64,000 nucleotides of DNA from Robiginitalea aestuariiviva (GCF_029537735.1 NZ_JARPUQ010000001.1:776696-840695); one strand, 5' to 3'. Numbered from the stretch's first letter, positions 8,449-48,056 are shown. A program made the numbers and translations. Notes: generated from the letters alone by a model not told the origin.

Positions 8449-8472
8449 GCCTCAGGCCCGCACCATAAAAAA

Positions 8473-8500
8473 AGCCCTGGTTTTTCGCCAGGGCTTTTCT
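8473..8500. terminator. Rho-independent terminator hairpin (AGCCCTGG-ttttcg-CCAGGGCT followed by TTTT)
   Basis: Perfect 8-bp stem flanked by an A-run and a T-run, between convergent genes (7522..8448 + and hflX -). Confidence 0.5.
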
Positions 8501-8688
8501 GTTGGGGTAGGTTCATACCATCTGATTACGTAACATGTCTTGTGGTACGATCCGGAATAAACACTATCACTTAAACACTGCATAAAGATAGCAGGATATC
8601 CGTATTAAACCGCATATTTTCAAGGTAAATTGCCTGATCGAGTGGGAAGTCCGACAAGCCGGGCGTTTTCATCGACGAGATTCGCCCG

Positions 8689-10952: not shown

Positions 10953-11672
10953 TTAATCATCTATACGAGTAATATTCCCTTCGGGCAAAAGATCTTCTCC
11001 ACGCAGCCTGAGGAAAACCTGCGCTGTGGTGATCACATCCAATTCGCAGTATTTCCGGATGCGTTCCACATCCTGCTCTTCATAATATACCGATCGTATT
11101 TGACTGCCGTCCAGGTCTTGCTTGGGCGAGGGGATGCCCAGGATATGGGCCAGTAACCGAAGGGAGGTATAGTGTTTGAAATCGCCGAATTTCCAGAGCT
11201 CCATGGTATCCAGGTGGGGCACTTCCCAGGGCTTTTTGCCAAAGAGGTTCAGTTTGGCCGGCAGGGGCAGGCCGTGGATGATCATGCGCCGGGCCAGGTA
11301 GGGAAAATCGAATTCCTTCCCATTATGGGCGCAAAGCAATTTGCGCGGCCCCCGGAAATACCCCTCCAGCAGGGAGGAAAATTCCCGGAGCAACTCCGGC
11401 TCCGAACCCGTAAAACTCTTCACCCGAAAGGTGCGTGGGCCCCCGGACTCCTGAAAGAAACCCGCAGAGATGCATACCACCTTCCCGAACTCGGCCCAGA
11501 TGCCCGCGCGCTCATAGAATTCGGCCGGGGTAAATTCCTCCTTGCGCTGGTAACGCGTTTTATGTTCCCACAGCTCCCGGGCCTCCTGTGTCAGGTCTTC
11601 ATAATCGGCCTGCTCAGGTACGGTTTCAATATCCAGGAAGAGGATGTTTTCCAGAGGGATTTTTTGCAGCAT
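10953..11672 (-). CDS. RNase-H-fold 3'-5' exonuclease (PolB exonuclease-domain-like)
   Basis: FLDIETVP motif at N-terminus (DEDD-type), 239 aa. Confidence 0.7.
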   Translation of the reverse strand: MLQKIPLENILFLDIETVPEQADYEDLTQEARELWEHKTRYQRKEEFTPAEFYERAGIWAEFGKVVCISAGFFQESGGPRTFRVKSFTGSEPELLREFSSLLEGYFRGPRKLLCAHNGKEFDFPYLARRMIIHGLPLPAKLNLFGKKPWEVPHLDTMELWKFGDFKHYTSLRLLAHILGIPSPKQDLDGSQIRSVYYEEQDVERIRKYCELDVITTAQVFLRLRGEDLLPEGNITRIDD

Positions 11673-11923
11673 GGAACTGTTTTCGGACTAAAAAAATACA
11701 AAGAAAGTGCACTTTCCCATCAGGGCCTGCGCGGGAAATATCCCCAATCTGGCCAAATCCCGCCCAAATACCGTTTTCCGACTGCCGGGTCGGTTTGGCG
11801 GTGGCTTCTCCAAGAGGGTTTCTGGATTAACGCCGGACAGGCCGCAGAAATCCCCTGTAAAATGCAGGAATCCGGGCCATTGAGCCGATAAAAAGTCAGT
11901 TATCCGACCAGTGGGTCGGTTTT

Positions 11924-12397
11924 CTAACCGAATAACGAGTGTTGGGGCGTTGGGCTCTCGTGGTTTAAAAGCCATTTCTTCCGGTGAATGCCCCCGGCGT
12001 ATCCCGTCATAGAGCCGTCGGAACCGATCACGCGGTGGCAGGGCACCACAATCCAAAGGGGATTCTTGCCATTGGCGGCCGCCACGGCGCGGATGGCCTT
12101 GGGATCGCCCAGGCGCAGGGTGAGTTCCTGATAGGAAACCGTTTGTCCGTAGGGTATGGCCTCCAGGGCCTGCCAGACCCTTTTCTGGAAGGGCGTGCCT
12201 TCGGGTTGCATGGGGAAATCAAACTGGGTAAGCTCCCCTTCAAAATAGGCCTTCAATTGGGCGCAGGGTACTTGAAGGGTTTCAGGGATGCGCTCCTGCT
12301 TTAGGGTGCCGTCTTCCACCGAAATAGCGCTAACCCCGTCCTGGTTCCCACGGATCACCGCAATCCCCAGGGGGGTCTGTATCCGTGCCTCTTCCAT
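11924..12397 (-). CDS. ogt: Methylated-DNA--protein-cysteine methyltransferase
   Basis: Active-site PCHRVIGSDGSMTGY; 157 aa. Confidence 0.85.
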   Translation of the reverse strand: MEEARIQTPLGIAVIRGNQDGVSAISVEDGTLKQERIPETLQVPCAQLKAYFEGELTQFDFPMQPEGTPFQKRVWQALEAIPYGQTVSYQELTLRLGDPKAIRAVAAANGKNPLWIVVPCHRVIGSDGSMTGYAGGIHRKKWLLNHESPTPQHSLFG

Positions 12398-12398
12398 A

Positions 12399-13499
12399 CT
12401 ATTCGATTATCCCGCTGCGTTTGGCCCGGTCTTCCCAGCGTTTGCGGGCCAGGGCCTGCAGGTCTTCCACGTTGTCACTTTCGTCCATGATTTCCATGCC
12501 CAAAAGGGTTTCGATCACGTCCTCCATGGTCACCAGGCCGCTCACCGAACCGTATTCGTCCACTACCAGGGCAATGTGCTCCCGCTTGCGGATCAGGGTG
12601 TCGAAAAGTTGCGGGATGGGGGTATTGCGGCGGGTTACCTGCAGGTCCCTCCGGATTTCCGAAAGGGGCTGGTCTCCGTTTTCGTTGATCATTTCCTCCA
12701 GTACATTGTCTTTGAGGACAAAGCCGGTAATCATGTCTTCCTGCTCCTGATACACGGGGATACGGGAGAAACGCAGGCGGGGATTCTCCCGGAAAAAGTC
12801 GGCTATGGTCTGGTTTTCCGGGGCAATTTTCATGACCGCTCGTGGCGTCATGATATCCTTCACCTGGATCTCGTCAAATTTCAGGAGGTTCTTAATCACC
12901 TTGCTTTCGGACTCCTCAAAAACCCCTTCCTCGTGGGCCACATCGGCCATGGCCGTAAAGTCCTCCCGGCTGAGCACGCTGTGGGCGTGTCCTTTTCCGA
13001 TAAGTCGGGTAAACAACTGCAGCAGCCACAACAGGCCGGTAACCCGCAGGAACCAGACCATACCGTTCAGCAGGCGGGCCGAAATGGGCGCCAGCTTGCG
13101 CCAGTAGGTGGCCCCCAGGGTTTTGGGGATGATTTCCGAGGCCACCAGGATCAGGATGGTCATCAGGGCGGATACCACCCCAACCATCAGGTCTTCGGTA
13201 AAAGTGACGCCGAGTACCTGGTGTACCTCATCCCCGAACCGCTCCGCATAGGCCACCTTGGCCTGTACCCCCACCAGGATGGCCCCTACGGTGTGGGCAA
13301 TGGTGTTCAGGGTCAGGATGGCGATCAGGGGTTTGTCCACATCCTTTTTCAATTGCTCCAGGGAAGCGGCGTAGTGCCGGCCTTCTTTTTTGCGGATGTT
13401 GATAAAAGTCGGGGTCACGGATAGCAATACCGCCTCCAGGATTGAACAGAGAAAGGAAAAGAAAATCGAAATAAAGGCGTAAAAAAGCAATAAGCCCAT
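12399..13499 (-). CDS. CNNM/HlyC/CorC-family transporter (DUF21-CBS pair-CorC_HlyC)
   Basis: N-terminal TM helices, CBS-like middle region, C-terminal transporter-associated domain; 366 aa. Confidence 0.8.
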   Translation of the reverse strand: MGLLLFYAFISIFFSFLCSILEAVLLSVTPTFINIRKKEGRHYAASLEQLKKDVDKPLIAILTLNTIAHTVGAILVGVQAKVAYAERFGDEVHQVLGVTFTEDLMVGVVSALMTILILVASEIIPKTLGATYWRKLAPISARLLNGMVWFLRVTGLLWLLQLFTRLIGKGHAHSVLSREDFTAMADVAHEEGVFEESESKVIKNLLKFDEIQVKDIMTPRAVMKIAPENQTIADFFRENPRLRFSRIPVYQEQEDMITGFVLKDNVLEEMINENGDQPLSEIRRDLQVTRRNTPIPQLFDTLIRKREHIALVVDEYGSVSGLVTMEDVIETLLGMEIMDESDNVEDLQALARKRWEDRAKRSGIIE

Positions 13500-13536
13500 A
13501 TATAGCGAATGTGAAGTCTAAGTTACAATAATTTCC

Positions 13537-14919
13537 CTATGGCCACCCGGCCTGGCGGAGGGCTTCATAAAAAACCTGCTGCACCCGGGTGCGCAGGTTC
13601 ATTTCGTAGAGCTGCCGGTGTTCCCGGCTGGGGTAAACCCGGTTGGACAGAAATATATATACCAATTGGTACTTTGGGTCCACCCACACGAAAGTGCCCG
13701 TAAAACCACTATGTCCGAAGCTTTCGGGGCTGGCCAGGGGGGCTGGGTAGGCCGCATCCAGGCCCAGGGTGTCATTGCCGAAGAGCGGCTTGTCAAAACC
13801 CAGGCCGCGGCGGTTCTCGTTTTCCGGGAATTGCACCCGGATGCTTTCGCGGACCACGGCAGAATCCAGCACCTGCCGCCCCCCAAAATTCCCATATTGG
13901 GCATAACACTGCAGCAGCACCGCCAGGTCCCTGGCAGAGCCGAACAGGCCTGCATTTCCGGAAATCCCTCCCCTAAGGGATGCATTCTCATCGTGCACCC
14001 ACCCGCGGGTCAGGGTATGCCGATAGAGGGTATCTACCTCCGTGGGCACGGTGCGCGCACCGGGGCGGTTCAGGGCCGGGAGAAAGACCAGGTCCTGCAA
14101 CCCCAAAGGCCCATACACCTCCTGGCGGAGGTACTGGTCAAAAGGCATCCCGCTCAGGTCTTCCACCACCTGGGGAAAAACGAGAAAGGCCAGGCCGGAA
14201 TAGCGATAGGTCTTATCCGCAGAAACCCGGGATCGGTTTACCTGCCGGTACATTTTTCGTATAAAGCGATTACGTACATACAACCCCTCATAGGCCTGCA
14301 AGCGGAACCGGCGGGAAGGTGTATCCCGCACAAACCGGTTTTTAAGGCCCTGGGCTGTGCGCACTTCACTGAGGAAAACGATATAGGGCACCAGGCCTGC
14401 CTGATGTGCCAGGATTTCCCGCAGGGTCAGATCCCTTTTATCCCGGTGCCACTTCCAGGGGGTCCAGTACTGGCTGAAAGGGGCATCCAGGTCTAATTTA
14501 CCTTCACCCACCAGCTTTAACAGGGCCGGAAGGGCCGCCGTGATTTTGGTAACCGATGCCAGGTCGTACAAGTCGGTTGGGGCCACCGGAACCAGGCTAT
14601 CGTAGGTATGGAAGCCATAGGCCTGGTGAAAAAGGACCTGCCCCTGATATGCCACCAGTACCTGCCCGCCCGGAAAGGCCTCCTCCCCAATCCCGGCAGC
14701 CATCAGAGAATCAACCTTTCGGTATAATTCAAGAGAATCCACCCCCAGTGCATCCAGGCTGACCGAGGGCATCTCCAAACCAGTATCAGCCAGCGGTATT
14801 TGAGGCGCCTCGGCCTGTGACCAAGCCTTATTAATACTGAATAGTATGCTTAAAGCAAAATATACAGCTAATCCCTGTAAGGCATTTAAAACAAAAATAT
14901 TAGAACGAATATCTTTCAT
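13537..14919 (-). CDS. Beta-lactamase-family serine hydrolase (class C-like)
   Basis: Signal peptide; SxxK motif LASVTKI; 460 aa. Confidence 0.8.
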   Translation of the reverse strand: MKDIRSNIFVLNALQGLAVYFALSILFSINKAWSQAEAPQIPLADTGLEMPSVSLDALGVDSLELYRKVDSLMAAGIGEEAFPGGQVLVAYQGQVLFHQAYGFHTYDSLVPVAPTDLYDLASVTKITAALPALLKLVGEGKLDLDAPFSQYWTPWKWHRDKRDLTLREILAHQAGLVPYIVFLSEVRTAQGLKNRFVRDTPSRRFRLQAYEGLYVRNRFIRKMYRQVNRSRVSADKTYRYSGLAFLVFPQVVEDLSGMPFDQYLRQEVYGPLGLQDLVFLPALNRPGARTVPTEVDTLYRHTLTRGWVHDENASLRGGISGNAGLFGSARDLAVLLQCYAQYGNFGGRQVLDSAVVRESIRVQFPENENRRGLGFDKPLFGNDTLGLDAAYPAPLASPESFGHSGFTGTFVWVDPKYQLVYIFLSNRVYPSREHRQLYEMNLRTRVQQVFYEALRQAGWP

Positions 14920-36586: not shown

Positions 36587-37162
36587 TTATTCCTCTCCCT
36601 TCCCGGCGTCGGTATCCTTGTGGGTACAGCTGTAGAAGGCGTCGTAGGCGGCGTACATGGCCTTTTCGGAAGACTTGCCGGCTTCGCGGGCGGCTTCCAG
36701 GGACTTGCGCATAAAGAAGTGCAGGTCTCCCAGCTTGCCTACCGTACCGGCTTTCTTGGCATTCTGGTAGGCCTCTTCGGCAAAATCCCGGGCGTCTATG
36801 GCGGCGCTTTCCGCGTTAATGGAAAAGGTTACCACATCGTCCAGGCCGCAGATCTCTGCGTGGAACTGGGCCTCGGAGGCAAATTGTACGGCCTCGTGGG
36901 CGGCAGCCAGGGCCTGGCCCGCCAGGGCTTCCACCTTGCCGGCGTTGTCTTTGCCATCGGCAAAACGGGCGGCATAGGCGGCGGCTTCGGCATAGACCTT
37001 CAGGGAGTCCGTAAGCTGGCCTACGGTAATCTCAAAGTCCTTTACGTCGTTGATTTCGCTTTTGAACAACGCGCATTGCTGCGCCTGGGCAGAGAGCCCG
37101 CCCAGGACCAAAAGGAGCAGGCCCGCAAATCGGGCTTTCAGGGTAGTTTTTAAAGGCATCAC
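36587..37162 (-). CDS. Secreted Ala-rich hypothetical protein
   Basis: Signal peptide MMPLKTTLKARFAGLLLLVLGGLSAQA; 191 aa. Confidence 0.5.
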   Translation of the reverse strand: MMPLKTTLKARFAGLLLLVLGGLSAQAQQCALFKSEINDVKDFEITVGQLTDSLKVYAEAAAYAARFADGKDNAGKVEALAGQALAAAHEAVQFASEAQFHAEICGLDDVVTFSINAESAAIDARDFAEEAYQNAKKAGTVGKLGDLHFFMRKSLEAAREAGKSSEKAMYAAYDAFYSCTHKDTDAGKGEE

Positions 37163-37286
37163 AGGGGTATCAGTAGGTTATTTACGTATGGTTTTAGCGG
37201 ATTTGGGTCTAGCTATAACGTAAAAATGGGGTGGGGATTGTGTATTGAACAATCACGTCGGTAAGATTAAGTGAATTCTTCTAAAT

Positions 37287-38138
37287 TTGATGAAAATGTA
37301 TAAAATGACTTATTCCGGTCACGAAACCTTTCATTGCAGATTGTTTTGGCTTAAAAAAGGGTACGATTATCTGACTGTTAACGATAATTTTTCGGAAGAG
37401 TCAGGGGTTGATTTAGGTGTAGGTAAGAATATGATTAATTCCATCCGCTATTGGATGAAAGCATTCGGCGCATTGGATGAAGATAACAACCTAAGCGCCT
37501 TATTTCAGCAACTTTTGAATGATGAGGGGTGGGATCCTTACTTGGAACATCAAGGCACTAATTGGTTGCTTCACTATATGATTTGCAAAACGAATAATGC
37601 TAGCATATACCGAGAGATTTTTTCTGAGCTCCGAAAACTAAAACCTGAATTTAGCAAAGAACACTTTGTTTCATTTGCCAAGGGTAATAATTCCCGTCTT
37701 CGTGACAATATACTCGGGAAAGACTTTTCTGTCTTCATTCGCACATACATGGATAAAGGATCTGATGGTGATGGGTTCACTTCAGGTCTGTTAGCCGATC
37801 TAAACTTGGTTCATGAGTTGGGCAAGAACTATTCCGGGGAAATTGTATATCGAATAGAAAATCGATTTCCCGATGATCTCCCGAACAAAATTTTATTATT
37901 CAGCATTTTAGACAATCCCGAATATTCTAATTCTATTGACTTCAATTCACTCTATTCTTCAGTAAATGGGCCTGGAAACATTTTTGCATTGAATGAGAGA
38001 GATCTTGAATCAAAATTGGAAGAATTAGCGGATAATTACCCAAGTATAGTTTACAAAAATGAAGCTGGGGTAAAGGAGTTACAATTCAAACAGCCAATTG
38101 ATAAATGGGAAATACTTGATGAATTTTATGCCGAATAA
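37287..38138 (+). CDS. Hypothetical protein, DUF4007-like (tentative); first gene of island operon
   Basis: 283 aa; N-terminal ...SGHETFHCRLFWLKKGY resembles the DUF4007 N-terminus as I remember it. True start may be ATG 37290 or 37305. A TAAATTTG (-7-like) element sits at 37282-37289. Confidence 0.45.
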   Translation: MMKMYKMTYSGHETFHCRLFWLKKGYDYLTVNDNFSEESGVDLGVGKNMINSIRYWMKAFGALDEDNNLSALFQQLLNDEGWDPYLEHQGTNWLLHYMICKTNNASIYREIFSELRKLKPEFSKEHFVSFAKGNNSRLRDNILGKDFSVFIRTYMDKGSDGDGFTSGLLADLNLVHELGKNYSGEIVYRIENRFPDDLPNKILLFSILDNPEYSNSIDFNSLYSSVNGPGNIFALNERDLESKLEELADNYPSIVYKNEAGVKELQFKQPIDKWEILDEFYAE

Positions 38139-41100
38139 CTATTCCACTTCTGTAAATGTAATTAGAGATGAAAATATTGACTTTAATTACATCCCCACTC
38201 CCAATGCTTCAAAGGCAGCATTAGATATTTTCAATAATATACGCGTAACCCATGCATTTAATATTATTGGGTCTTATGGTACGGGGAAGTCATCCTTTTT
38301 ATGGGCTTTAGAAAAAAGCCTTAAAGGAGAGAAGCCATATTTCGGTTTAAACCGGGGCAATTTTAATGACTCTTTCGGCTTCATTAAACTAATTGGTGAA
38401 TATGCCTCTCTCAGGAGCTCGTTTAATGAATACTTCGGAATTAAGGAGGATTACAAGGGCAATCAACTTCTGTTTGAGAAGATTTTCGAAGAATACGAAA
38501 AACTAAATTCAGGATTGCTTGTCATTATAATTGATGAATTTGGAAAACATTTGGAATACGCTTCTAAGAATTCCCCTGAGGAGGAGATATATTTCATCCA
38601 AAAGTTGGCTGAATTTGTCAATGCCCCAAATAGAAATATAATTCTGATTACCTCCCAACACCAAAATTTTAATGCCTACAGTCAAGGATTAGAAGAAGTC
38701 CTGGCAATTGAATGGAGAAAAATCGAAGGCCGATTTAAACAAATATTGTTCAATGAGCCTATTGAACAGCTGCTTCATTTAGCGTTTAGAGGCATACAAA
38801 AACCAAATCAGAATATTGCCCAATCCGAACTTCTGGATCTATTATCAAGTCACCACTTATTTAAATGTTCTAAGGCTCAATTACAGGAAATTGTTGAAGG
38901 TATTTATCCCTTCGATATCATTTCCATTTATGCATTGGCTATTTGTATTCAGAAATATGGACAAAATGAAAGGTCTCTTTTTAACTTTCTCAATTCAGAC
39001 ACCTTCTTGCAGGCTGAAAAAGGGGCAAAGAGAATTTCATTAGATTTTATCTATGACTATGTCTATTCGGAATTCTATTCATTCATTGTAAGCAAAGTAA
39101 ATCCAGATTATTCTCATTGGGCTATTATAAAGGATTCAATTGAACGAGCGGAATCTCTTGTTGAGGGCGAACAAGACACTGCTCTTAAATTAATCAAATC
39201 AATTGGCTTATTGAATCTACTAGCTACAAAGGGTGCTAGAATCGACCTTTCGTTTTTAAAGTCCTATTATTCTAATATTAAAAATCTGACGTCAGGCATT
39301 AAGGAACTTGAAGCCTATCAGATAATTAGATACAATAAATTCAGTCATTCTTACAAACTATTTGAAGGCACAGATCTGGATATTAACCATGCACTTGCAA
39401 CAGCGCAGAATCAGATAGATGCATCAATTGACATTTATAGCCGACTTGGTGCTCATTTAAACCTTAAGCCAGTAATTGCCAAAGCCATTTCTTTTAACAA
39501 AGGAACTCCTAGGATCTTTGAGTTCATTATATCCAACACTCCTGTTAGTAAGATCCCTATTGGTGAAGTCGACGGTTATATTAATCTAATCCTTAACAAT
39601 GAATTAGATATAACCAATCTTATTCAAAGTTTTGAGGCTAATGATGAGGCAATATTGTTTGGAATACTTAGTAAGTCCCATGAAATAGAACTGTCTCTTA
39701 TTGAAATTGAAAAAGTTGAAACTGTTTTAAAAAACGCCACCAATCAACATGACAAAATTGCGCAACGGGAATTAAAATCCATAAAAGAAAGCCACCTTAA
39801 GTTGTTGGAACACTATGTTACAAAGAGTTTTTACAATGGTAACATCCGTTGGTTTGACAATACAGAAGAATTAACATTTCAAAATATTGGAGCATTAAAT
39901 CAAAGACTTTCTCTTATTTGCCAAAGGGTTTATCACGCCACTCCTACATTCTATCATGAGCTAATAAATAGACATAAAGTTTCCGGTTCCATTTCTACGG
40001 CTCGAAACAACCTATTTAAGGCTCTTGTTCAAAGTTGGGAGGAAGAAAATTTTGGATTTCCGGAAAAAAAATGGCCTGCAGAGAAAACAATCTATTACTC
40101 TCTTTTAAAGCGCACTGGTATTCATCGGAAACAAGAAAATCAATTTGAGCTTGGAAGGCCAGAGGAAGTTTCATTTCATGCGCTATGGGATACGTGCGAT
40201 TCATTTCTCGGTGAATCGGTCCATTATCCCTTGCCTATTACGGAATTGCAGGAGCGATTGAAGACAAAACCATTCAAGTTAAAAGAAGGGTTTATTGATT
40301 TTTGGATCCCCATATTTCTTTTTATTCGTAGAAGTGATTTTGCTTTATATAAAGAGGGTAAATATTTGCCTCAAATTAAAGATAACACCCTGCATTTCTT
40401 AATTCGATCGCCTAAAGATTTCGCCTTAAAGGGCTTTCAACTTAGCGACCTAAGGTTGGAACTTTTTAACCGTTATAGGGCATTCTTACATGGGAAAAAA
40501 GTAAGTCGATTTAATAACAGTTCTTTTATAGAAACAATTCGTCCTTTACTTACCTTTTATCAAGGTCTCCCTGATTATTCCAAGAAAACAAATTCAATTT
40601 CCCTTGAGGTTAAACAATTCAGAGAAGCTATAGTCTCCGCTAAAGACCCGGAGAACACTTTTTTTGTGGACATACCAAACGCATTGGGTTATAATGCTGA
40701 ACTACTAGTAAATGATTCGAAAAATTTTGACGTCTACATTCAAAAACTTCAATCCGCAATTGAAGAACTTCGAACCGCTTTCCAAGCTCTAATCGAGCGT
40801 CTTGAGGCCTGTTTTCAGGAAGAAGTATTCAAGGAGAAGTTGGAATTCCCAGAATATAAATTACGTCTAATTGATCGGTATAGTAACATACGCGATTATA
40901 AACTAAACAATGCTCTAAGGAATTTCATCAATAGGCTAGGTGCGCCAATTGATGATCGTGACTCTTGGATATCTTCACTCTCTTTCGTTGTGCTTAATAA
41001 ACCATTAGAGCAACTTTTAGACACTGAGGAACCATTGTTGAAAGAAAAGTTTATTGAGATCTTTAGGTCATTAGATAATCTTTCCGACCTCTCGAATACT

Positions 41101-41307
41101 AAACCTGTATCGGGTGAACGCTTAGTAAAGCTGGATATCACGACGGAAGAAAATGGCATGTCTAGCCAAATTGTCCGAATTCAAAAAAATGAGTTAGAAG
41201 CCAGAGCTGATCGCATATCAGAAATTGAAGCCTTGCTAGAAAAAGAAAATAGCATGAAAATTCCTATATTGACTGAACTCCTCCGAAAAGCACTTACCAA
41301 TGAGTAA
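38098..41307 (+). CDS. Large P-loop NTPase (1069 aa), uncharacterised
   Basis: Walker A GSYGTGKSS (residues about 59-67), Walker B LLVIIIDEFGK about 100 aa downstream. Long alpha-rich C-terminal region with no recognisable domain. Start probably ATG 38128 (11-nt overlap with the upstream gene). Confidence 0.65.
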   Translation: MINGKYLMNFMPNNYSTSVNVIRDENIDFNYIPTPNASKAALDIFNNIRVTHAFNIIGSYGTGKSSFLWALEKSLKGEKPYFGLNRGNFNDSFGFIKLIGEYASLRSSFNEYFGIKEDYKGNQLLFEKIFEEYEKLNSGLLVIIIDEFGKHLEYASKNSPEEEIYFIQKLAEFVNAPNRNIILITSQHQNFNAYSQGLEEVLAIEWRKIEGRFKQILFNEPIEQLLHLAFRGIQKPNQNIAQSELLDLLSSHHLFKCSKAQLQEIVEGIYPFDIISIYALAICIQKYGQNERSLFNFLNSDTFLQAEKGAKRISLDFIYDYVYSEFYSFIVSKVNPDYSHWAIIKDSIERAESLVEGEQDTALKLIKSIGLLNLLATKGARIDLSFLKSYYSNIKNLTSGIKELEAYQIIRYNKFSHSYKLFEGTDLDINHALATAQNQIDASIDIYSRLGAHLNLKPVIAKAISFNKGTPRIFEFIISNTPVSKIPIGEVDGYINLILNNELDITNLIQSFEANDEAILFGILSKSHEIELSLIEIEKVETVLKNATNQHDKIAQRELKSIKESHLKLLEHYVTKSFYNGNIRWFDNTEELTFQNIGALNQRLSLICQRVYHATPTFYHELINRHKVSGSISTARNNLFKALVQSWEEENFGFPEKKWPAEKTIYYSLLKRTGIHRKQENQFELGRPEEVSFHALWDTCDSFLGESVHYPLPITELQERLKTKPFKLKEGFIDFWIPIFLFIRRSDFALYKEGKYLPQIKDNTLHFLIRSPKDFALKGFQLSDLRLELFNRYRAFLHGKKVSRFNNSSFIETIRPLLTFYQGLPDYSKKTNSISLEVKQFREAIVSAKDPENTFFVDIPNALGYNAELLVNDSKNFDVYIQKLQSAIEELRTAFQALIERLEACFQEEVFKEKLEFPEYKLRLIDRYSNIRDYKLNNALRNFINRLGAPIDDRDSWISSLSFVVLNKPLEQLLDTEEPLLKEKFIEIFRSLDNLSDLSNTKPVSGERLVKLDITTEENGMSSQIVRIQKNELEARADRISEIEALLEKENSMKIPILTELLRKALTNE

Positions 41308-42439
41308 TGTAAGGCATGTACTAGGAATCTCCGGAGGCAAGGATAGCGCAGCCTTAGCGATCTATCTGCACGAGAAATATCCTCAGATAGACTTTGAGTA
41401 TTATTTCTGTGACACAGGGAAAGAATTAGATGAGACTTATCAATTAATTGAAAAGCTGGAGTCTTATTTAGGTAAATCAATCCTAAAACTCGAAAATGAG
41501 GAATTGCATGGATTGAATGAAGACCCCTTCGATTATTACTACAAAATTTTTCGAGGTTACCTCCCCTCATCTCAAGCTCGTTGGTGTACGGCAATGATGA
41601 AGCTAAAACCCTTCGAAAATTTCGTACAAAACGATCCTACTCTTTCGTATGTGGGTATCCGAGGTGACGAGGATCGGGAAGGATATATTTCTAGGCAAGA
41701 AAATATTCAGTCCATCTTCCCATTTCGTAAAAATATTTGGAGCGTAGATGTGCTCAACTTGATTTTTAATCCTAGCAATATTGATCACATTCTCGATTGT
41801 TATAACGAGTATTTAAGCGGTGACAAATTGGATTATGTGCATCATGTTTTTTCTAAACCTATCCCATTTGACCGAAATAGAAGGGCTGAAAAAAATGCAC
41901 TAATAAAAGAAAGTACTGAAAGTCTTCTAAACCTGGGTGTTCCGGAATTCAATCATGTCGTTTTCAAATTCCTTAAATCGACAAACTATAGCGTCGCCTT
42001 ATTGGATGATTTTCCACTCTTAGACAACGAAGATGTTTTGATTCGAGATGATATCTTCAAAATCCTTGAAGAAAGACCAGTGGGTGTCCCGAAATACTAC
42101 GAAAAGATTCCTTTCGAGGTCGATGGTCAAAAAGGAGAATATGCAAGAAGTCGTTCCGGTTGTTATTTCTGTTTCTTTCAGCAAAAAATAGAATGGGTTT
42201 GGCTTTATGAACAACATCCCAATTTGTTTAGGAAAGCCATGCATTATGAAAATGTAGATGAACATTTTACTTGGACATCCGATGAAAGTTTAGAGGAATT
42301 AATCCAACCTGAAAGAATCCGCCAAATTAAGCTGGATCATATTCATAGATCCAATCGTGAAAAGTCAAATAATTCCCCCTTTCTGATTGACATTTTGGAA
42401 GGTACCGAAAGGGATGGGTGTAATACTTGTTTTTTGTAG
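41300..42439 (+). CDS. PP-loop ATP-pyrophosphatase of the PAPS-reductase family (DndC/BrxP-like)
   Basis: SGGKDS PP-loop motif at residues 11-16 (LGISGGKDSAALA). C-terminal Cys cluster (CYFCFF...CNTCF). 8-nt overlap with the upstream ATPase gene. Confidence 0.8.
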   Translation: MSNVRHVLGISGGKDSAALAIYLHEKYPQIDFEYYFCDTGKELDETYQLIEKLESYLGKSILKLENEELHGLNEDPFDYYYKIFRGYLPSSQARWCTAMMKLKPFENFVQNDPTLSYVGIRGDEDREGYISRQENIQSIFPFRKNIWSVDVLNLIFNPSNIDHILDCYNEYLSGDKLDYVHHVFSKPIPFDRNRRAEKNALIKESTESLLNLGVPEFNHVVFKFLKSTNYSVALLDDFPLLDNEDVLIRDDIFKILEERPVGVPKYYEKIPFEVDGQKGEYARSRSGCYFCFFQQKIEWVWLYEQHPNLFRKAMHYENVDEHFTWTSDESLEELIQPERIRQIKLDHIHRSNREKSNNSPFLIDILEGTERDGCNTCFL

Positions 42440-43518
42440 TCATGGACTATCATTTTAAATCAATGAAAATAAGCGATATCGTAGACTTGATAGACAAAGA
42501 CAAAGTCAATCTATCGCCTTATTATCAACGCAAGGATATTTGGACGAAAAATGATCAGGAAGCACTAATTGATTCTATTCTTAACAACTATCCATTACCA
42601 AATTTATTTATTTATAATAATGAAGGGATAATGGAAGTCGTTGATGGTCAACAAAGAATTAGAACTATTTATCGGTTTGTTAAAAACAATATTTCATCTT
42701 CCAGGGGTGAATATTTCAATTCTATTAAAAAAGAAGAATTCCTAAATTATAAGCTTCCTATTATCGAAATATTCAACTTGGATGCCGATGATGATATAGC
42801 TGAATTCTATGTTTTAGTTAATAAAAAAGGTAAGCACTTAACAACACCTGAATTATATAAAGCTGAGTTTCATGACAAAAAATTTATGAAGCTCGCTGAA
42901 GAGATTTTGGATGAGCAATCATTCATTGACCTCAATTTGTTTACAGAGGCAAGCTCAAAAAGAATGAATGATAGAAGCTATGTTGAAGAATTATTGGCCT
43001 ATTTGAAATACGGAATACAGGACAAAAAATCAAATATTGAAACTATATATAAGAACGATATTAGTGACGAGGAGTATGAATTTCTAAAGGACCTTTTTAT
43101 AAAAGTTTTAACCCCGATTCACGCTTTAAATGATGTCCATAATTTGAGCAGGACACGATATAAACAAAAGAATGATTTCTATACTTTGTTCAACTTTGTT
43201 CATCAAAATTTAAATCAGGATCTCAAAACATTCAAAGCACAATATAAAGTCCTCTTGTTAATTTCAGAATATATATCTCCTTCAAACGACGATTGTGAAC
43301 CTCTTAAGAACTATGCTTTGGATTGTGTTTCACAATCCAATTCCAAAAAAGCGCGGGAAAGGAGATTGATGTTTTTCAATTACATTTTAAAGAACAAATC
43401 TGAATCATTAGAGGATAATGAAGTTCTTGGTGAGATTGCCAATTACATTGAAAAAGGACAATTTTTCCCCTTTACCTTAAATAAGGTAGATGAATATTAC
43501 TTGTTAGATATTAAATGA
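42427..43518 (+). CDS. DUF262 (ParB-like/GmrSD N-terminal-like) domain protein
   Basis: DGQQR motif (VVDGQQRIRTI) preceded by an NYPLPNLF segment. 363 aa. Start possibly ATG 42442. Confidence 0.75.
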   Translation: MFFVVMDYHFKSMKISDIVDLIDKDKVNLSPYYQRKDIWTKNDQEALIDSILNNYPLPNLFIYNNEGIMEVVDGQQRIRTIYRFVKNNISSSRGEYFNSIKKEEFLNYKLPIIEIFNLDADDDIAEFYVLVNKKGKHLTTPELYKAEFHDKKFMKLAEEILDEQSFIDLNLFTEASSKRMNDRSYVEELLAYLKYGIQDKKSNIETIYKNDISDEEYEFLKDLFIKVLTPIHALNDVHNLSRTRYKQKNDFYTLFNFVHQNLNQDLKTFKAQYKVLLLISEYISPSNDDCEPLKNYALDCVSQSNSKKARERRLMFFNYILKNKSESLEDNEVLGEIANYIEKGQFFPFTLNKVDEYYLLDIK

Positions 43519-44522
43519 GTATTGTGAAAATTACTTTCCCAAAAACAATAGTCATTAATAAATATGTAATTAGGATAGATCTATCCAAACCTTTCATGAA
43601 TATCGTCAATATAGATGGGGTGGATTATATACCATATTACTTAGATAACCATTCGCCAGGAAATAGAGGAGGTAATTCTCATGTCCTAAAGCTAATTGAA
43701 GCACAATCCTTCGATGAGGATGAAGGCTATCCCGATGAACCTGATTTAGTTATAAAAATCTGCAACTCAGAAAAAGGGAGAAAGCGTGAGGATAACAGGA
43801 GTAAAAGATTTGATATAGAAATTCAGGCTTTACTTGAGTGTTCTGCTAAACGTATACCTAATCTAATGAAAATATATCACAATGGATTGGCGCAAATTGA
43901 AGACAAACGAGGATTAAAGTGCCAGCATAGGTTCTATACTATGCAATATGCGGCATGCGATTTATCTACATATCTTGCTAATAATAAGCTGAGCCTGATT
44001 GATAAAATTCAACTTTTAATTGATATCGCCAATTCACTGAAGAATCTTTGGGAGTTAAAGTATTATCATAGGGATCTCAAGCCTGATAACATTCTTTTTA
44101 TTGACAATGAATGGGTTATTTCAGATTTGGGATTAATCGATAAGAGGGATGAAAATTTTGAAATCGATAAACCAGCAGAATGGATTGGTCCAAGAGGTTG
44201 GATGAGTCCCGAATCAATGAACAAATTTTTGTGTGAAGGGAGGCCTTGGGAAAGTCATCATGACTGTAAGATCGATCATAGTTCAGATCTATATCAGCTT
44301 GGTAAGATTTATTGGTTTATTCTTCAAGGTAACTCACCAGAAGGTGGCATTAGACGTTCAGATTTTCAAATTCAAGATGAAGGGCTTTATCAAATCATTA
44401 GAACTTTGCTGAACAATTCGAAAAATCGAAGAATTTCTGATATAGAAGACTTAATAGGCTTATTAAAAAGGCAATATTTTAGATCTATCGAAAAATATTC
44501 CTTTCAAAAGTCCATAGCTTAG
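43515..44522 (+). CDS. Hanks-type Ser/Thr protein kinase-like protein
   Basis: Glycine-rich loop GNRGGNSHV, beta3 Lys LVIKIC, alphaC Glu EIQAL, catalytic loop YHRDLKPDNILF, DLG (DFG variant), SPE (APE variant). 4-nt overlap with the upstream gene. Confidence 0.75.
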   Translation: MSIVKITFPKTIVINKYVIRIDLSKPFMNIVNIDGVDYIPYYLDNHSPGNRGGNSHVLKLIEAQSFDEDEGYPDEPDLVIKICNSEKGRKREDNRSKRFDIEIQALLECSAKRIPNLMKIYHNGLAQIEDKRGLKCQHRFYTMQYAACDLSTYLANNKLSLIDKIQLLIDIANSLKNLWELKYYHRDLKPDNILFIDNEWVISDLGLIDKRDENFEIDKPAEWIGPRGWMSPESMNKFLCEGRPWESHHDCKIDHSSDLYQLGKIYWFILQGNSPEGGIRRSDFQIQDEGLYQIIRTLLNNSKNRRISDIEDLIGLLKRQYFRSIEKYSFQKSIA

Positions 44523-44527
44523 TAAAG

Positions 44528-45130
44528 ATGAATAGTTTAATCTCATCATTCTCATTTTATGAGATTCTAAGAATATTACTTCCCGGGACATACCTTTATT
44601 TGGGATTAAAGGAGTCAATTATCGGCGAAATAGCTAGAAACTTAAATACTGATCCTGGGATTTACCAAAACACTTTAGTTGAGGTTATTTTAATTTGTGT
44701 GTTTGGATTGTTTATCTATGCTTGGGATTTTCCAAAAATGTTCAAGAAATTTCAAAAAGATCTACCCACAAATAAAATTCAAAAAATTACGGGCATCGAA
44801 TACAAAAAGGTGTTAATTAATTATTATGATTTCTATTCGACATTATCAGAAAGTGAAAAATTAAAGACTGAGAAATATAGTGGATTCTTTCACCTCAGTG
44901 TAAACCTTTCATGCTGTGCCTTTTTTCTTATTTGCCTTGAAATCATTTCAATAATGAAAATGGGTTTAACCAATTTTTTATTGTTGAATATCTTGATTTT
45001 TGTATTATCTATCTCAACGGTATTTTTGATCTATACTAGAAGACTAAAAGTTGCTTTTATTAGGCATTTGGACCAACATTTTGAGTCGAAATACTTTCAA
45101 AAATTACAATCAGGAATTAATAACCCCTAA
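44528..45130 (+). CDS. Four-TM integral membrane protein, hypothetical (possible effector)
   Basis: Four hydrophobic segments (ILRILLPGTYLYLGL, VEVILICVFGLFIYAW, CCAFFLICLEIISIM, LLLNILIFVLSISTVFLIY). Last gene of the plus-strand operon. Confidence 0.5.
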   Translation: MNSLISSFSFYEILRILLPGTYLYLGLKESIIGEIARNLNTDPGIYQNTLVEVILICVFGLFIYAWDFPKMFKKFQKDLPTNKIQKITGIEYKKVLINYYDFYSTLSESEKLKTEKYSGFFHLSVNLSCCAFFLICLEIISIMKMGLTNFLLLNILIFVLSISTVFLIYTRRLKVAFIRHLDQHFESKYFQKLQSGINNP

Positions 45131-47616
45131 TCCTCTAGTCCTTGCATCATCTCTTCCATACCTCCAAAATTCAAAATAAAAGTGGAATAATAATGATCAA
45201 AAAGATCCTTTAGGTATTGTCCTAATTCCACATGCTCTAATTCCTCCTTACCCTCCATTTTCTGGCGAATCTCATACCCGCGATTTTTACTAATTGTATA
45301 TAAGAACAGAGTATGGAAATAAACAGAAGTATAAAACTTCCTATTCGCCAGTTCCAATTGCTCTTGGTTGGGATTTTTATACTTAGAGATAAAGTTTCTT
45401 AGGACAGCCGAATCCATATTTATAAAAATGGATTTCAAAACGTCTCCCTCGGCCTCAGGCACCATGACCGTCTGCCAATCTATTGCCAATCCTGTTGCCT
45501 CTTCTACCGCTTCCCATGCAACTTGAGCTTCAATTTCAGGATTCGGTTCCTTATATGTGAATATTAGTTGTGGTAGGCCTAATGGCTCTTGCCCTTCGTC
45601 CTCCTTGGGTTTCTTTTCCTTAGGCTTTTCTTTGTCTGCAATTTTCACCCAAAAAATTTCATCAAAGTCTTTCCCAGGACTTGTTAGGGTAACCTTCATT
45701 TGAACGGCATCGCCCACTGAAACCTCATCTTTTGGATTCAGGGAGATCTTTATGGTTCCTCTATTTGGACTACTTCGAACGATATTAAATAACTCGGATG
45801 GCTCCTTTGGCTCCCCTGGTTTATTCCCACCTTGAGTCTCATTATTCTGAATATTTAGAATGGCAATCTGAAGATCACCTGGTTCCTCAATACGATCAAA
45901 ATAGTCGTTTTCTACATCCGTAGTAAACTTGATGATTCGCTCCCCTCCCAAGGGGATTTTAGTGATTTCCGTTTTACCATCGTTTCTCGCCTCTACCTTA
46001 AACTGTGATGGGAATCGTTGGGGATTAAATGGCACTACTTCTTTCTCGTGTTTAGAAGGCCTTTTATTCTGTTTTGATTTCTTATCCTTTTCGAGATCTA
46101 ATTTGAATGTCTGATTAAGTAATTTTAAAAGATCAGAATCCAATGGTAAATCCTTGGTGAAGCTTTTTAATAATTCCCCTGTGTTTGAAGAGGTATCTAT
46201 GTTTACCGCTTCCTTCCTTCTCTTTTCAATTTCAGCCAGCCGCCCATCTTTTTTACTTAGTTGGGTTGCCAAATACTGTCTGAGATATTGTGTTTCATCG
46301 CCGTCCTTAAGGCGATCCCTTGAGGCCATAAAGAGTTCTTTGCGGAACTCATACTTCATCTCTGTACAATCCACATGAATAAGCAAATGGTTCTTAAGGA
46401 GATTTAGTTTTAAAGACCTTGTGATGAACTCAGAGGTGTAATTTCCGTGAACCTGTCCGTTTAATGAAAACATTACAGACATATAGTTCTTGAAGTATCT
46501 GTTCTGAATAACTTCCTTGGAACGTTTTAAATCAAAGTCTCGAATTTTCGTTTTAAATACGAAACAGGAAACTTTCATCTTCCCTATTGTATCGTCTTCA
46601 AATATCTCCGAAAATTTGTCGTCTAAATATTCTGATTCTTCGCTGGTTAACCTTCGTTTAAGTCCATACAAATCTTGAACCAATACCTTGTTATTAGGGT
46701 ACCTTTCTGCAGTATCTTTTGTAAGGATTGGGAGTGCAGGACTGAACAAAAACTCATTTATGCTTTGATTCAGGTCTTGCGCAAAACCAGAATACCCCTT
46801 AGGAAACTGATACGAATACATCTTAATAATGGTTCCTGTCTGGAATAACCTGTCTTCCAATCCGAGATCCAATTGAGTAATTGGAAAAGAAGGAATTTTA
46901 CCATCAATTAATAGATACTCATACCAAGTTTCCTTTGCATGGTCAGATTCCCTTTTGGGGTGTTCCCGAATAAGGGTAAAACCAAAATCACCATCATTAG
47001 TGAATCGCTTTGAGGCAATTAACTGATACCGTTTTTTCCCACAAAAAACAATAGCACCACTTCCTCCCATATTGTACTTACCCTGAACAAAATGTACATC
47101 ATTCTTATTACCTCTTAGTAAGGACAGAAAGGTGTTTTCAAAATCGGCCGGATGTTGACCTTCGCCATTATCGTAGACCAAAACCGAGGTTGGATATTGG
47201 CTTCTTTGAGTACGTGGACCCTTTCCATCGGCGATGATTTGAATATCCTGTGCCTGTTTCCGTCTAAAGCTTTGAAGATCCCAATTATTATCAGGAAAAA
47301 ATAATTCGATTGCCTCGTCCATTGATTTAGGAGCATTCTCGGAGGCTGGATCTATTTTCTCTTCTTGACATCTTTTGGTCAGAAGTGCATCAATAGAATT
47401 GGTAACTTTCTCAATTAGAGCCGCTACTGGATTGGATTGTTGGTTCTTTACAACACCATAATTGCTTTTATTGTTGCCGAGAGGTTTCCAATTGGAATCT
47501 TCGAAAATTTTTGGTGATTCATCAATAATGGCAACGAGATCCTCCTCATCTTTTGCGTGGAAAAGTTGGAAAAAGATCTTTTCCGTTTCTATCTTTTTCA
47601 TTCGCGCTGAATACAA
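45127..47616 (-). CDS. GHKL-superfamily (Bergerat-fold) ATPase, 829 aa
   Basis: N-box AALIEKVTNSIDALL (ExxxNxxDA), G1 box LVYDNGEGQ (DxGxG), G2 box GKYNMGGSGA. Long C-terminal region uncharacterised. Convergent with the plus-strand operon (4-nt overlap of stops). Confidence 0.7.
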   Translation of the reverse strand: MYSARMKKIETEKIFFQLFHAKDEEDLVAIIDESPKIFEDSNWKPLGNNKSNYGVVKNQQSNPVAALIEKVTNSIDALLTKRCQEEKIDPASENAPKSMDEAIELFFPDNNWDLQSFRRKQAQDIQIIADGKGPRTQRSQYPTSVLVYDNGEGQHPADFENTFLSLLRGNKNDVHFVQGKYNMGGSGAIVFCGKKRYQLIASKRFTNDGDFGFTLIREHPKRESDHAKETWYEYLLIDGKIPSFPITQLDLGLEDRLFQTGTIIKMYSYQFPKGYSGFAQDLNQSINEFLFSPALPILTKDTAERYPNNKVLVQDLYGLKRRLTSEESEYLDDKFSEIFEDDTIGKMKVSCFVFKTKIRDFDLKRSKEVIQNRYFKNYMSVMFSLNGQVHGNYTSEFITRSLKLNLLKNHLLIHVDCTEMKYEFRKELFMASRDRLKDGDETQYLRQYLATQLSKKDGRLAEIEKRRKEAVNIDTSSNTGELLKSFTKDLPLDSDLLKLLNQTFKLDLEKDKKSKQNKRPSKHEKEVVPFNPQRFPSQFKVEARNDGKTEITKIPLGGERIIKFTTDVENDYFDRIEEPGDLQIAILNIQNNETQGGNKPGEPKEPSELFNIVRSSPNRGTIKISLNPKDEVSVGDAVQMKVTLTSPGKDFDEIFWVKIADKEKPKEKKPKEDEGQEPLGLPQLIFTYKEPNPEIEAQVAWEAVEEATGLAIDWQTVMVPEAEGDVLKSIFINMDSAVLRNFISKYKNPNQEQLELANRKFYTSVYFHTLFLYTISKNRGYEIRQKMEGKEELEHVELGQYLKDLFDHYYSTFILNFGGMEEMMQGLED

Positions 47617-47666
47617 TTATTAAACTTGCTGCTCTTACTTCTGACGCTTAACTATTTGCTTTAATT

Positions 47667-47888
47667 CTATTGTTTTATGAAAATATCTAATAGCTCTCTG
47701 AGCTCTTTCGCCTTCTGTTTGTCGAACTGAATATTCTGTTTTGACCCTCGCCCCCTTGTTAAATCGCCCATAGCATAAGTTCTTATTTGCATCCAATGTT
47801 TTTCGATAATAACATCCCCTATCACACTCCCTTGGCGAATACTAATGTTATCCTCTGTTTCTTTGATAATTCTTCCTAAAACTGCCAT
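47667..47888 (-). CDS. Small hypothetical protein upstream of the GHKL ATPase gene
   Basis: 73-aa ORF starting MAVLGRIIKETEDN...; AT-rich codon usage like the rest of the island; no recognisable motif. Confidence 0.3.
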   Translation of the reverse strand: MAVLGRIIKETEDNISIRQGSVIGDVIIEKHWMQIRTYAMGDLTRGRGSKQNIQFDKQKAKELRELLDIFIKQ

Positions 47889-48056
47889 GATTTTATTTTC
47901 AAATAGTATGATATCTAGAATAACATTGTGCCGGATTCGAAATAAACCCCGCCCATAATTGAACATGGATAATAGCCTAATTCGTAAAAATCCCTCTCAC
48001 ATCTCATGAGTTAGAGCTGAGTTCACTCCTGGATTCGATATGAAGTTAGCTTCGGC

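Follow-up and report, generated by a model that had tools for sequence, protein, structure and literature searches.

A DUF262 protein paired with a Hanks-type kinase in an apparently undescribed variant of Ssp phosphorothioation systems

What does a eukaryotic-like protein kinase do next to a DUF262 protein in a DNA-modification operon? This question is raised by a 64-kb stretch of the Robiginitalea aestuariiviva genome (GCF_029537735.1, NZ_JARPUQ010000001.1:776696-840695). We call the whole stretch of 64,000 nucleotides the window, and coordinates are counted from its first letter. A reading made from the sequence alone had described a DUF262 protein, a Hanks-type kinase and a small membrane protein as the possible sensor/effector half of an operon within a PP-loop modification locus. 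We find that the DUF262 and kinase genes accompany sspBCD, the genes of a phosphorothioate (PT) modification module, and that they do so in diverse Bacteroidota. We conclude that the architecture is real and conserved, a variant of Ssp PT systems that has apparently gone undescribed. The role of the pair is less certain, and we weigh several explanations for it below.

The genes lie in a low-GC island with sharp edges at about 37.15 and 48.05 kb (37150-48050). Its guanine-plus-cytosine (GC) content is about 34-37% in 2-kb windows and 29-39% per gene, compared with about 57% in the flanks. Six closely packed plus-strand genes form one apparent operon, sspB-sspC-sspD-DUF262-kinase-TM, in which TM stands for a transmembrane protein. 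The features of this operon are as follows (ORF, open reading frame; NTP, nucleoside triphosphate; aa, amino acids).

37287-38138, plus strand: sspB (Pfam DUF4007, E=1e-62; PADLOC SspB, E=6.4e-88)
38098-41307, plus strand: sspC (PADLOC SspC, E=0 over the full length; BrxC, E=1.2e-57)
41300-42439, plus strand: sspD (Pfam PAPS_reduct, E=3.5e-9; PADLOC SspD, E=2.9e-92)
42442-43518 (longest ORF from 42427), plus strand: stand-alone ParB-DUF262 plus helical (ParBDB-like) protein with no nuclease domain
42517-42543, plus strand: DUF262 motif I, PYYQRKDIW, whose Y-Q-R triad matches the PT-sensing Y30/Q31/R32 of SspE
42643-42657, plus strand: DUF262 motif II, DGQQR (aa 73-77), for NTP binding and hydrolysis
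43515-44522, plus strand: minimal Hanks-type Ser/Thr kinase of 335 aa, kinase domain only (Pfam Pkinase)
44528-45130, plus strand: 200-aa accessory protein with 3-4 TM segments and a K/R-rich loop at aa 70-118 (from homologues and hydropathy)

SspB is the DUF4007 subunit of the PT modification module, a DNA-binding and nicking protein with three winged helix-turn-helix (wHTH) domains. SspC is an ATPase homologous to BrxC/PglY, and SspD is a PP-loop, PAPS-reductase-like sulfur-transfer enzyme. By their family matches, the upstream genes are SspBCD, a predicted single-strand PT modification module, and SspBCD is predicted to produce PT (for example CpsCA) in host DNA. The placement of the pair inside a PP-loop modification locus was therefore correct, as SspD is the PP-loop protein and belongs to the same operon. 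The start codon of sspC is uncertain because its ORF overlaps sspB. The DUF262 gene begins after a gap of 2 nucleotides (nt) from sspD, and the TM gene lies 5 nt past the kinase gene. The kinase gene had been placed 4 nt downstream of the DUF262 gene; instead, the two genes share 4 nt (ATGA) at the DUF262 stop and the kinase start. Database homologues number 680 for the DUF262 protein, 94 for the kinase and 67 for the TM protein, so all three are real genes rather than chance ORFs. Proteins encoded in the window are 100% identical to database entries from Robiginitalea sp. M366.

The DUF262 and kinase genes are adjacent to each other and to sspBCD in all 12 informative loci, the window included. 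The gene order sspB-C-D-DUF262-kinase is found in the window, L001, L003, L004, L005/6, L007, L008, L087/88, L089, L090 and L094. L095/96 represents a divergent branch with the permuted order DUF262-kinase-sspB-C-D (8897-16145 in L095). The sources of the named loci are listed here (MAG, metagenome-assembled genome).

L001/L002: gut metagenome contigs, with the kinase named by NCBI as Bacteroides thetaiotaomicron
L003: Balneolales MAG
L005/L006: Sediminibacterium
L007: Marinoscillum
L008: Bacteroidetes MAG
L087/L088: Aequorivita
L089: CP051246
L090: Bacteroidota MAG
L094: metagenome contig

The sspD, DUF262 and kinase genes are on the same strand and usually either overlap or stand a few to about 20 nt apart; L004 is the exception. 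There, two genes stand between sspD and the DUF262 gene (7795-8864), one coding for a 225-aa protein of no family and the other for a 130-aa nucleoside 2-deoxyribosyltransferase-like protein. Among the retrieved contexts, we found no members of the DUF262-kinase family away from ssp genes. None were on plasmids or viral contigs, and the viral contigs hold only distant DUF262 relatives. The sequence-only reading had called a kinase next to DUF262 rare, which is true outside this family; within the family, the pairing is invariable. The cassette is common in marine Flavobacteriia and is found in B. thetaiotaomicron-like gut contigs as well; 289 blocks of the collection list the kinase sequence of the latter. 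A genome-wide scan with a single kinase sequence gave no match. In a scan with a kinase alignment, the patterns selected were generic (HRDxKPDN) and unrelated kinases flooded the results, so that only L007 and L008 were useful.

We compared pairwise identities across 11 loci. SspC and SspD co-vary strongly (r=0.81), as do the DUF262 protein and the kinase (r=0.70), and cross-module correlations are 0.22-0.33. The 55 pairs are not independent, which makes this analysis only suggestive. It suggests that the DUF262-kinase pair forms a cassette whose evolutionary history is its own.

The DUF262 protein matches Pfam GmrSD_N (PF03235) with E=3.2e-22 and 80.1 bits, above the cutoff of 33.2, and it carries the DGQQR motif that was first noted in it. 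It is 363 aa long from a TTG at 42427 and 358 aa long from an ATG at 42442 (MDYHF...). Family alignment and NCBI annotation support the ATG, 2 nt past the sspD stop, as the true start. The ORF reported earlier (42427-43518) is thus the correct frame with five extra codons. The family search returned 680 matches, the best 120 of which are all 349-389 aa long with GmrSD_N as the sole domain. In an alignment of 39 sequences, motif I (L-x-P-x-Y-Q-R-x3-W, with P31, Y33, Q34 and R35 invariant), motif II (DGQQR) and motif III are invariant. The second half of the protein is helical and strongly conserved (KRMNDR, TRYKQKNDFYTLF, NCVSQSNSKxAR), and the predicted structure has a ParB domain followed by a helical domain. 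Conserved Ser and Thr residues of the protein include T243, T253, S304 and S306.

The protein had been described as a ParB-like nuclease, a label that does not hold, since the DUF1524/HNH half present in SspE and GmrSD is missing. We found no Pfam match to GmrSD_C/DUF1524 and no His-Me/HNH signature in the 39-sequence alignment, and the model is helical past the ParB domain. The best PADLOC matches are NsnA, the closest type, and PD-T4-2_A. The NsnA match (E=8.3e-27) aligns aa 10-322 with positions 48-380 of the 385-position profile. PADLOC gave no SspE match, and the NCBIfam DGQHR-domain model TIGR03187 matched weakly (E=6e-6; 26.2 bits against a cutoff of 58.85). PDB sequence searches with the single sequence and with an N-terminal fragment gave chance matches only, and a profile search reached only motif I of BrxU. 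We conclude that the DUF262 protein corresponds to the sensor half of SspE/DndI but lacks the HNH nuclease, comprising a ParB/DUF262 NTPase fold and a helical domain of DNA-binding type.

The invariant residues of motif I coincide with a characterized sensing site. SspE senses PT through Y30 and Q31, with R32 lining the patch, and the Y30A or Q31A substitution abolishes both PT-stimulated GTPase activity and defence (PMC9646914). DndI uses P23/Y25/Q26, and R87A in its DGQQR motif abolishes ATPase activity (PMC11662687). The motif I position of BrxU reads I-Q-R, compared with Y-Q-R in the DUF262 family. BrxU does not read PT. The invariant Y-Q-R patch fits a PT-reading function, short of proving it.

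The kinase matches Pfam Pkinase (PF00069) with E=1e-15 and 58.3 bits, exceeding the cutoff of 31.7. All of the core motifs claimed for it in the sequence-only reading are present: PGNRGGNS (43656-43679), LVIKIC (43746-43763), HRDLKPDN (44067-44090), DLG (44124-44132) and GPRGWMSPE (44187-44213). K81, E102, H185-R186-D187, K189, N192, D204-L205-G206, P232-E233, D258 and R306 are invariant in 27 family members. Because every Hanks catalytic residue is invariant across this set (the VAIK Lys, the alphaC Glu, HRD, Asn, DFG/DLG, APE/SPE and the subdomain XI Arg), the kinase should be catalytically active. Its family is compact, with 94 clusters; 86 of these are 316-351 aa long and the remainder are mostly shorter fragments. 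Members with a source name are from Bacteroidota, save one from a Balneolales MAG. The best PADLOC matches are Mad6, PD-T4-6 and Stk2 (E=4e-18 to 1e-14), and these cover the generic kinase core only. The public annotation of the kinase (308 aa) begins 27 codons later than the family alignment supports (43515-43595). In L089, the kinase is split into ORFs of 307 and 31 aa (11112-12142), possibly through a frameshift, pseudogene formation or a sequencing error.

The TM protein had been called a 4-TM protein. It is small and polytopic, but its hydropathy profile shows three strong hydrophobic segments (about aa 50-68, 125-143 and 150-168) and one weaker segment (about aa 13-31), so 3-4 TM segments is the better description. 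Its 67 homologues at 50% clustering are nearly all 170-220 aa long, match over most of their length and share conserved motifs. This similarity in length and motifs argues that the TM protein is the product of a real gene. Three strong hydrophobic segments recur in most of the 12 family members we profiled. A TM homologue lies directly 3' of a same-family kinase in two other loci: L093, where the gap is 3 nt and the kinase is 45% identical (E=5e-80), and L094. We located L094 through a metagenome scan with a six-sequence TM alignment, and this locus repeats the whole architecture of the window at 36-57% identity. Among 13 related loci, the TM protein is present in 3, always directly after the kinase, and absent from 10. 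The sequence-only reading would have been weakened if the protein proved non-conserved and missing from homologous islands. Its absence from most loci partly bears this out, but the protein recurs in L093 and L094 and among its 67 homologues. No Pfam or NCBIfam family matches it, and no PADLOC family does so convincingly; a weak PADLOC match is to Csx27 (E=1.8e-4). Csx27 is a membrane accessory of type VI-B CRISPR systems. We conclude that the TM protein is a genuine, optional accessory and not a core effector.

The modules that flank the pair vary, and they include restriction candidates that the sequence-only reading had overlooked. In the window, a large gene converges on the operon from the minus strand, and its stop codon overlaps that of the TM gene. 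A short ORF lies 5' of it.

45127-47616 (annotated start near 47601), minus strand: 829-aa GHKL (Bergerat-fold) ATPase with a large uncharacterized C-terminal region
47667-47966, minus strand: 99-aa ORF with no family match

The 829-aa protein contains the invariant GHKL/Bergerat motifs EKVTNSIDA (47386-47412), YDNGEGQ (47155-47175) and GKYNMGGSG (47056-47082). Pfam HATPase_c_3 matches it weakly (E=0.0016); it has no Pfam family of its own, and PDB searches by single sequence and by profile gave nothing. More than 3,200 homologues at 67-78% identity are found across Flavobacteriia, compared with 35-70% identity for the ssp genes. An AlphaFold2 model was poor (predicted local distance difference test score, pLDDT, 61.7), and its weak Foldseek matches were to TRAP1/Hsp90 and to immunoglobulin (Ig)-like domains. 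These matches weakly suggest a GHKL protein whose N-terminal half resembles Hsp90/TRAP1 and which also has Ig-like beta-sandwich domains. A convergent GHKL protein of about 820-830 aa accompanies the pair in the window, L003, L087/88, L089 and L094, and it is also found in L091 and L092, where a DndB variant replaces the pair. The 829-aa GHKL ATPase is a partner that recurs with this sspBCD clade, and we regard it as a candidate restriction effector. The 99-aa ORF has a 52% identical homologue directly upstream of sspB in L091 (19563-19814), and it may code for a small regulator that travels with these islands.

In other loci, different modules take the neighbouring position. PbeABCD lies downstream in L001, L004, L005/6 and L008 (PADLOC PbeA, E=0). 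The original description of PbeABCD was of a PT-dependent restriction module, a role that has since been questioned (PMC10853773). L007 has an NB-ARC/TPR protein, a helicase and a GHKL protein downstream. Directly past the kinase in L090, a second NsnA-like DUF262 protein is followed by a SIR2 (ThsA-like) protein (12186-14086), an arrangement that looks like a two-gene DUF262-plus-effector module. In L095, and also in L096, an AbiH gene and a gene for a large AAA protein are found downstream, and a full-length GmrSD gene is found upstream.

The position after sspD is itself variable. In L091 (Antarcticibacterium arcticum, 12507-14182) and L092 (Psychroflexus sediminis, 12540-14295), a small protein and a Pfam DndB-family protein (E=1.8e-25 and 1.2e-36) fill the DUF262-kinase slot between sspD and the convergent 830-aa gene. 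The small proteins are 132-175 aa long and the one in L091 is weakly GIY-YIG-like. The SspD proteins of these two loci are 68-69% identical to that of the window. Canonical Ssp systems have SspE immediately after sspD. Thus, the slot after sspD is modular and always holds a ParB-superfamily protein: SspE, DUF262 with the kinase, or DndB with a small protein.

We also examined the island as a whole. No terminator-like sites were found at the operon gene junctions, and the terminator sites in the scan were fewer than in shuffled sequence. Counts from the promoter and terminator scan did not exceed the shuffled expectation; the only promoter type that the scan covers is sigma-70, whose consensus may not fit this organism. 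The island lacks a gene for the cysteine desulfurase SspA; several sister loci encode one beside the operon. We looked for an integrase, a tRNA gene and att-like or flanking direct repeats in the island and found none. A mobile-element origin was rejected on these grounds, together with the lack of plasmid matches to the kinase and the presence of only distant DUF262 relatives on viral contigs.

How might the pair function? We propose that it is a dedicated two-gene signalling cassette of a Bacteroidota SspBCD clade, with a PT-reading sensor and a kinase output, a proposal to which we give slightly less than an even chance. SspBCD would write PT onto host DNA. The DUF262 protein would scan DNA and report its PT status through an NTP-dependent conformational switch, as SspE and DndI do, and it would gate the partner kinase in place of a fused nuclease. 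The defence output would then be protein phosphorylation. The kinase might act on host or phage proteins to cause an abortive response, like Stk2 or PglW. Alternatively, its targets could be the variable neighbours: the 829-aa GHKL ATPase in the window, or PbeABCD or SIR2 elsewhere. The 200-aa membrane protein would be an optional extra, which might serve as a membrane anchor or as a secondary effector for the kinase. In favour of the proposal are the SspBCD identity, the complete catalytic residues of the kinase, the constant linkage of the pair to sspBCD, its co-variation and the place of SspE directly after sspD in canonical systems. The same sensor-plus-enzyme logic appears in L090 because an NsnA-like DUF262 protein is paired there with SIR2. 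A bolder version of the proposal holds that the kinase, and not a nuclease, is the primary immune output, which arrests the infected cell or licenses interchangeable effectors (the GHKL ATPase, PbeABCD, SIR2 or the TM protein), and that sspBCD and the pair make up a self-sufficient five-gene system that is widespread in Bacteroidota, B. thetaiotaomicron of the human gut among them. L095/96 has no adjacent Pbe or GHKL partner, and therefore sspBCD and the pair may be a complete system. We consider this version possible but are inclined to doubt it.

Several observations weigh against the sensor-kinase proposal. Most loci also carry PbeABCD or the GHKL protein as a plausible separate restriction module, and an effector role for the pair is then not required. 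A tyrosine ahead of the motif I QR is common in DUF262 proteins, so the Y-Q-R match cannot establish PT reading. The manner of switching is a further difficulty. The kinase is of the RD type, and its activation segment (aa 204-233, DLGLxxxRxxxxxxDxxxExIGPRGW) is rich in acidic residues and has no conserved Ser or Thr. The kinase may be regulated by partner binding rather than by loop phosphorylation. Finally, our survey is a sample of 12 loci and not a census.

The most serious competing explanation gives the DUF262 protein the part in Ssp that DndB has in Dnd, namely that of a repressor or limiter of PT modification that belongs to the ParB family and is modulated by NTP. The kinase would tune the DUF262 protein or SspBCD through phosphorylation, the pair would govern how much PT the genome carries and guard against over-modification, and restriction would fall to the neighbouring module (the 829-aa GHKL protein in the window, PbeABCD elsewhere). 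DndB regulates PT modification without being essential (PMC12914056, PMC10853773). The regulatory reading is therefore favoured by the DndB-type proteins that occupy the equivalent slot in L091 and L092, sister loci with closely related sspBCD. It also gains from L095/96, where the pair is found upstream of sspBCD in the way that dndB precedes dndCDE, from the constancy of the pair while the adjoining restriction candidates vary, and from the weak DGQHR match of the DUF262 protein. However, that match is well below threshold, the protein has no Pfam DndB match and no tblastn similarity to the DndB proteins of L091 and L092, and it is closest to NsnA-type sensors. The poor co-variation of the pair with SspC and SspD is a better fit to an exchangeable restriction-side cassette than to a co-adapted regulator. 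In addition, the papers cited here describe no DndB-kinase pairing for Dnd systems. On balance, we think a DndB-like role rather unlikely.

The sequence-only reading offered a different output, in which the kinase, triggered by the DUF262 sensor, activates the TM protein as an abortive-infection effector, for example one that depolarizes the membrane. The TM gene follows the kinase closely in the window, its homologues hold the same position in L093 and L094, and the conserved hydrophobic segments, the K/R-rich loop and the weak Csx27 match all agree with such a role. Yet the protein is missing from 10 of the 13 loci that keep sspBCD-DUF262-kinase and so cannot be the core effector, it lacks a recognized family, and the TM contexts cover the window, L093 and L094, with about 60 other homologues outside them. 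This makes the model improbable. What survives of the idea that these genes are the sensor/effector half of the operon is that a sensor and output role for the DUF262 protein and kinase is plausible. It is more improbable still that the two genes make up a separate defence system, with Menshen or PD-T4-2 as its relative, that is merely clustered with Ssp and has no functional link to PT. Defence systems do cluster in islands, NsnA and PD-T4-2_A are the best PADLOC matches of the DUF262 protein, and co-variation is stronger within the pair than between the pair and sspC or sspD. Against this stands the adjacency to ssp genes, which is complete across distant taxa, on the same strand, and maintained even when gene order is permuted; no pair was seen without ssp genes, and none occurred on plasmids or viral contigs.

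If the sensor-kinase proposal is correct, this would be the first PT-based defence to turn the reading of a DNA backbone mark into protein phosphorylation. The partners of PT systems described so far are of four kinds: SspE or DndI, in which a sensor is fused to a nuclease, DndFGH, SspFGH and PbeABCD. With a conserved partner made up of a nuclease-less sensor and a kinase, PT-based immunity would gain a signalling layer, and Ssp would be linked conceptually to Pgl/BREX type 2 and MADS, whose kinases are poorly understood. The modular slot bears on the question of regulator or effector function for the ParB-family proteins of PT systems. The genetic tractability of B. thetaiotaomicron makes the hypothesis directly testable.

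We compared the pair to known systems and searched for earlier descriptions of it. PADLOC v2 has no model for a DUF262-kinase pairing, and a DUF262 protein with a Hanks kinase alongside Ssp is not mentioned in PMC8092258, PMC12914056, PMC10853773, PMC12839542, PMC12065111, PMC11662687 or PMC9646914. A full-text literature search for the pairing returned reviews or unrelated papers only, with subscription-only papers such as Xiong 2020 outside its reach. The suggestion in the sequence-only reading that the architecture had not been described is thus supported, with the qualification that kinases have a precedent in modification-based defences.

SspE belongs to one of the closest known systems. 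The SspABCD-SspE system is said to be a PT-sensing defence, as Xiong and co-workers reportedly found in 2020. SspE and the DUF262 protein both have a DUF262 domain with DGQQR and a Y-Q patch. The window protein differs in its length (358 aa, compared with 560 residues in the solved SspE chain 6jiv), in lacking the DUF1524/HNH nickase and in being followed by a separate kinase, and SspA is not encoded in the island. We rejected identity with SspE on the basis of the missing DUF1524/HNH domain and the lack of a PADLOC SspE match. The role of SspE in PT-sensing defence is documented by Gao 2022 (PMC9646914).

DndB resembles the DUF262 protein in being a nuclease-less, NTP-binding member of the ParB superfamily, about 360-420 aa long, that is encoded beside PT-modification genes and fills the same slot in sister loci. 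The window protein belongs instead to the GmrSD_N branch and has a kinase partner; the partner in the DndB variant is a small protein that is weakly GIY-YIG-like. Identity with DndB was rejected because there is no Pfam DndB match, the DGQHR model scores below its cutoff, and tblastn found no similarity to the L091 and L092 proteins.

Menshen (NsnABC), reportedly described by Millman and co-workers in 2022, has a similar proposed sensor-transducer-effector logic, and the DUF262 protein shares the ParB-DUF262 plus helical ParBDB-type architecture of NsnA. Unlike Menshen, the window encodes neither the NsnB ABC-ATPase/DUF3696 protein nor the NsnC inPIN nuclease, and it has a kinase instead, inside an Ssp PT operon. 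By the family definition of Li 2025 (PMC12065111), Menshen was rejected, as the downstream genes code for a Pkinase protein and a TM protein and not for NsnB or NsnC.

SspFGH and PbeABCD are likewise partner modules beside PT-modification genes, and PbeABCD follows the pair in several loci. Their proteins are unrelated to those of the pair and none are encoded in the window: SspF is a Walker-A ATPase and SspH is FtsK-like (PMC8092258), PbeA is an HKD nuclease-helicase, and PbeC is an ABC ATPase. SspFGH was rejected because PADLOC gave no SspF, SspG or SspH match and the domain content differs from that in PMC8092258.

The kinase has its own set of relatives. Stk2, PD-T4-6 and Mad6 of MADS share the Hanks kinase fold, and they set a precedent for phosphorylation being used against phages. 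The similarity is limited to the generic kinase core, however, and none of the three is associated with DUF262 or PT modification. Identity with Mad6 was rejected, since the NCBIfam model (NF047741) scores 23.6 bits against a cutoff of 460 and the PADLOC match is confined to the kinase core. PglW of BREX type 2 is a eukaryotic-type kinase in a DNA-modification defence that also has a BrxC/PglY-family ATPase, a family that SspC of the window matches as well. PglW differs from the window kinase in being a multidomain protein of 1400-1600 aa (NERD nuclease, pseudokinase, kinase, wHTH and iSTAND) in a methylation-based system; the window kinase is a single domain of 335 aa encoded by a separate gene next to DUF262, and identity with PglW was rejected for this reason. 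The PglW kinase has been proposed to be a co-effector or a sensory hub (PMC12839542), and some DndF variants that bear S/T/Y kinases (PMC10853773), along with MADS, provide further examples of kinases in modification-based defence. Kinases in modification-based defences therefore have a precedent, and the concept is not categorically new; what distinguishes the window is a stand-alone kinase paired with a nuclease-less DUF262 protein within an Ssp operon.

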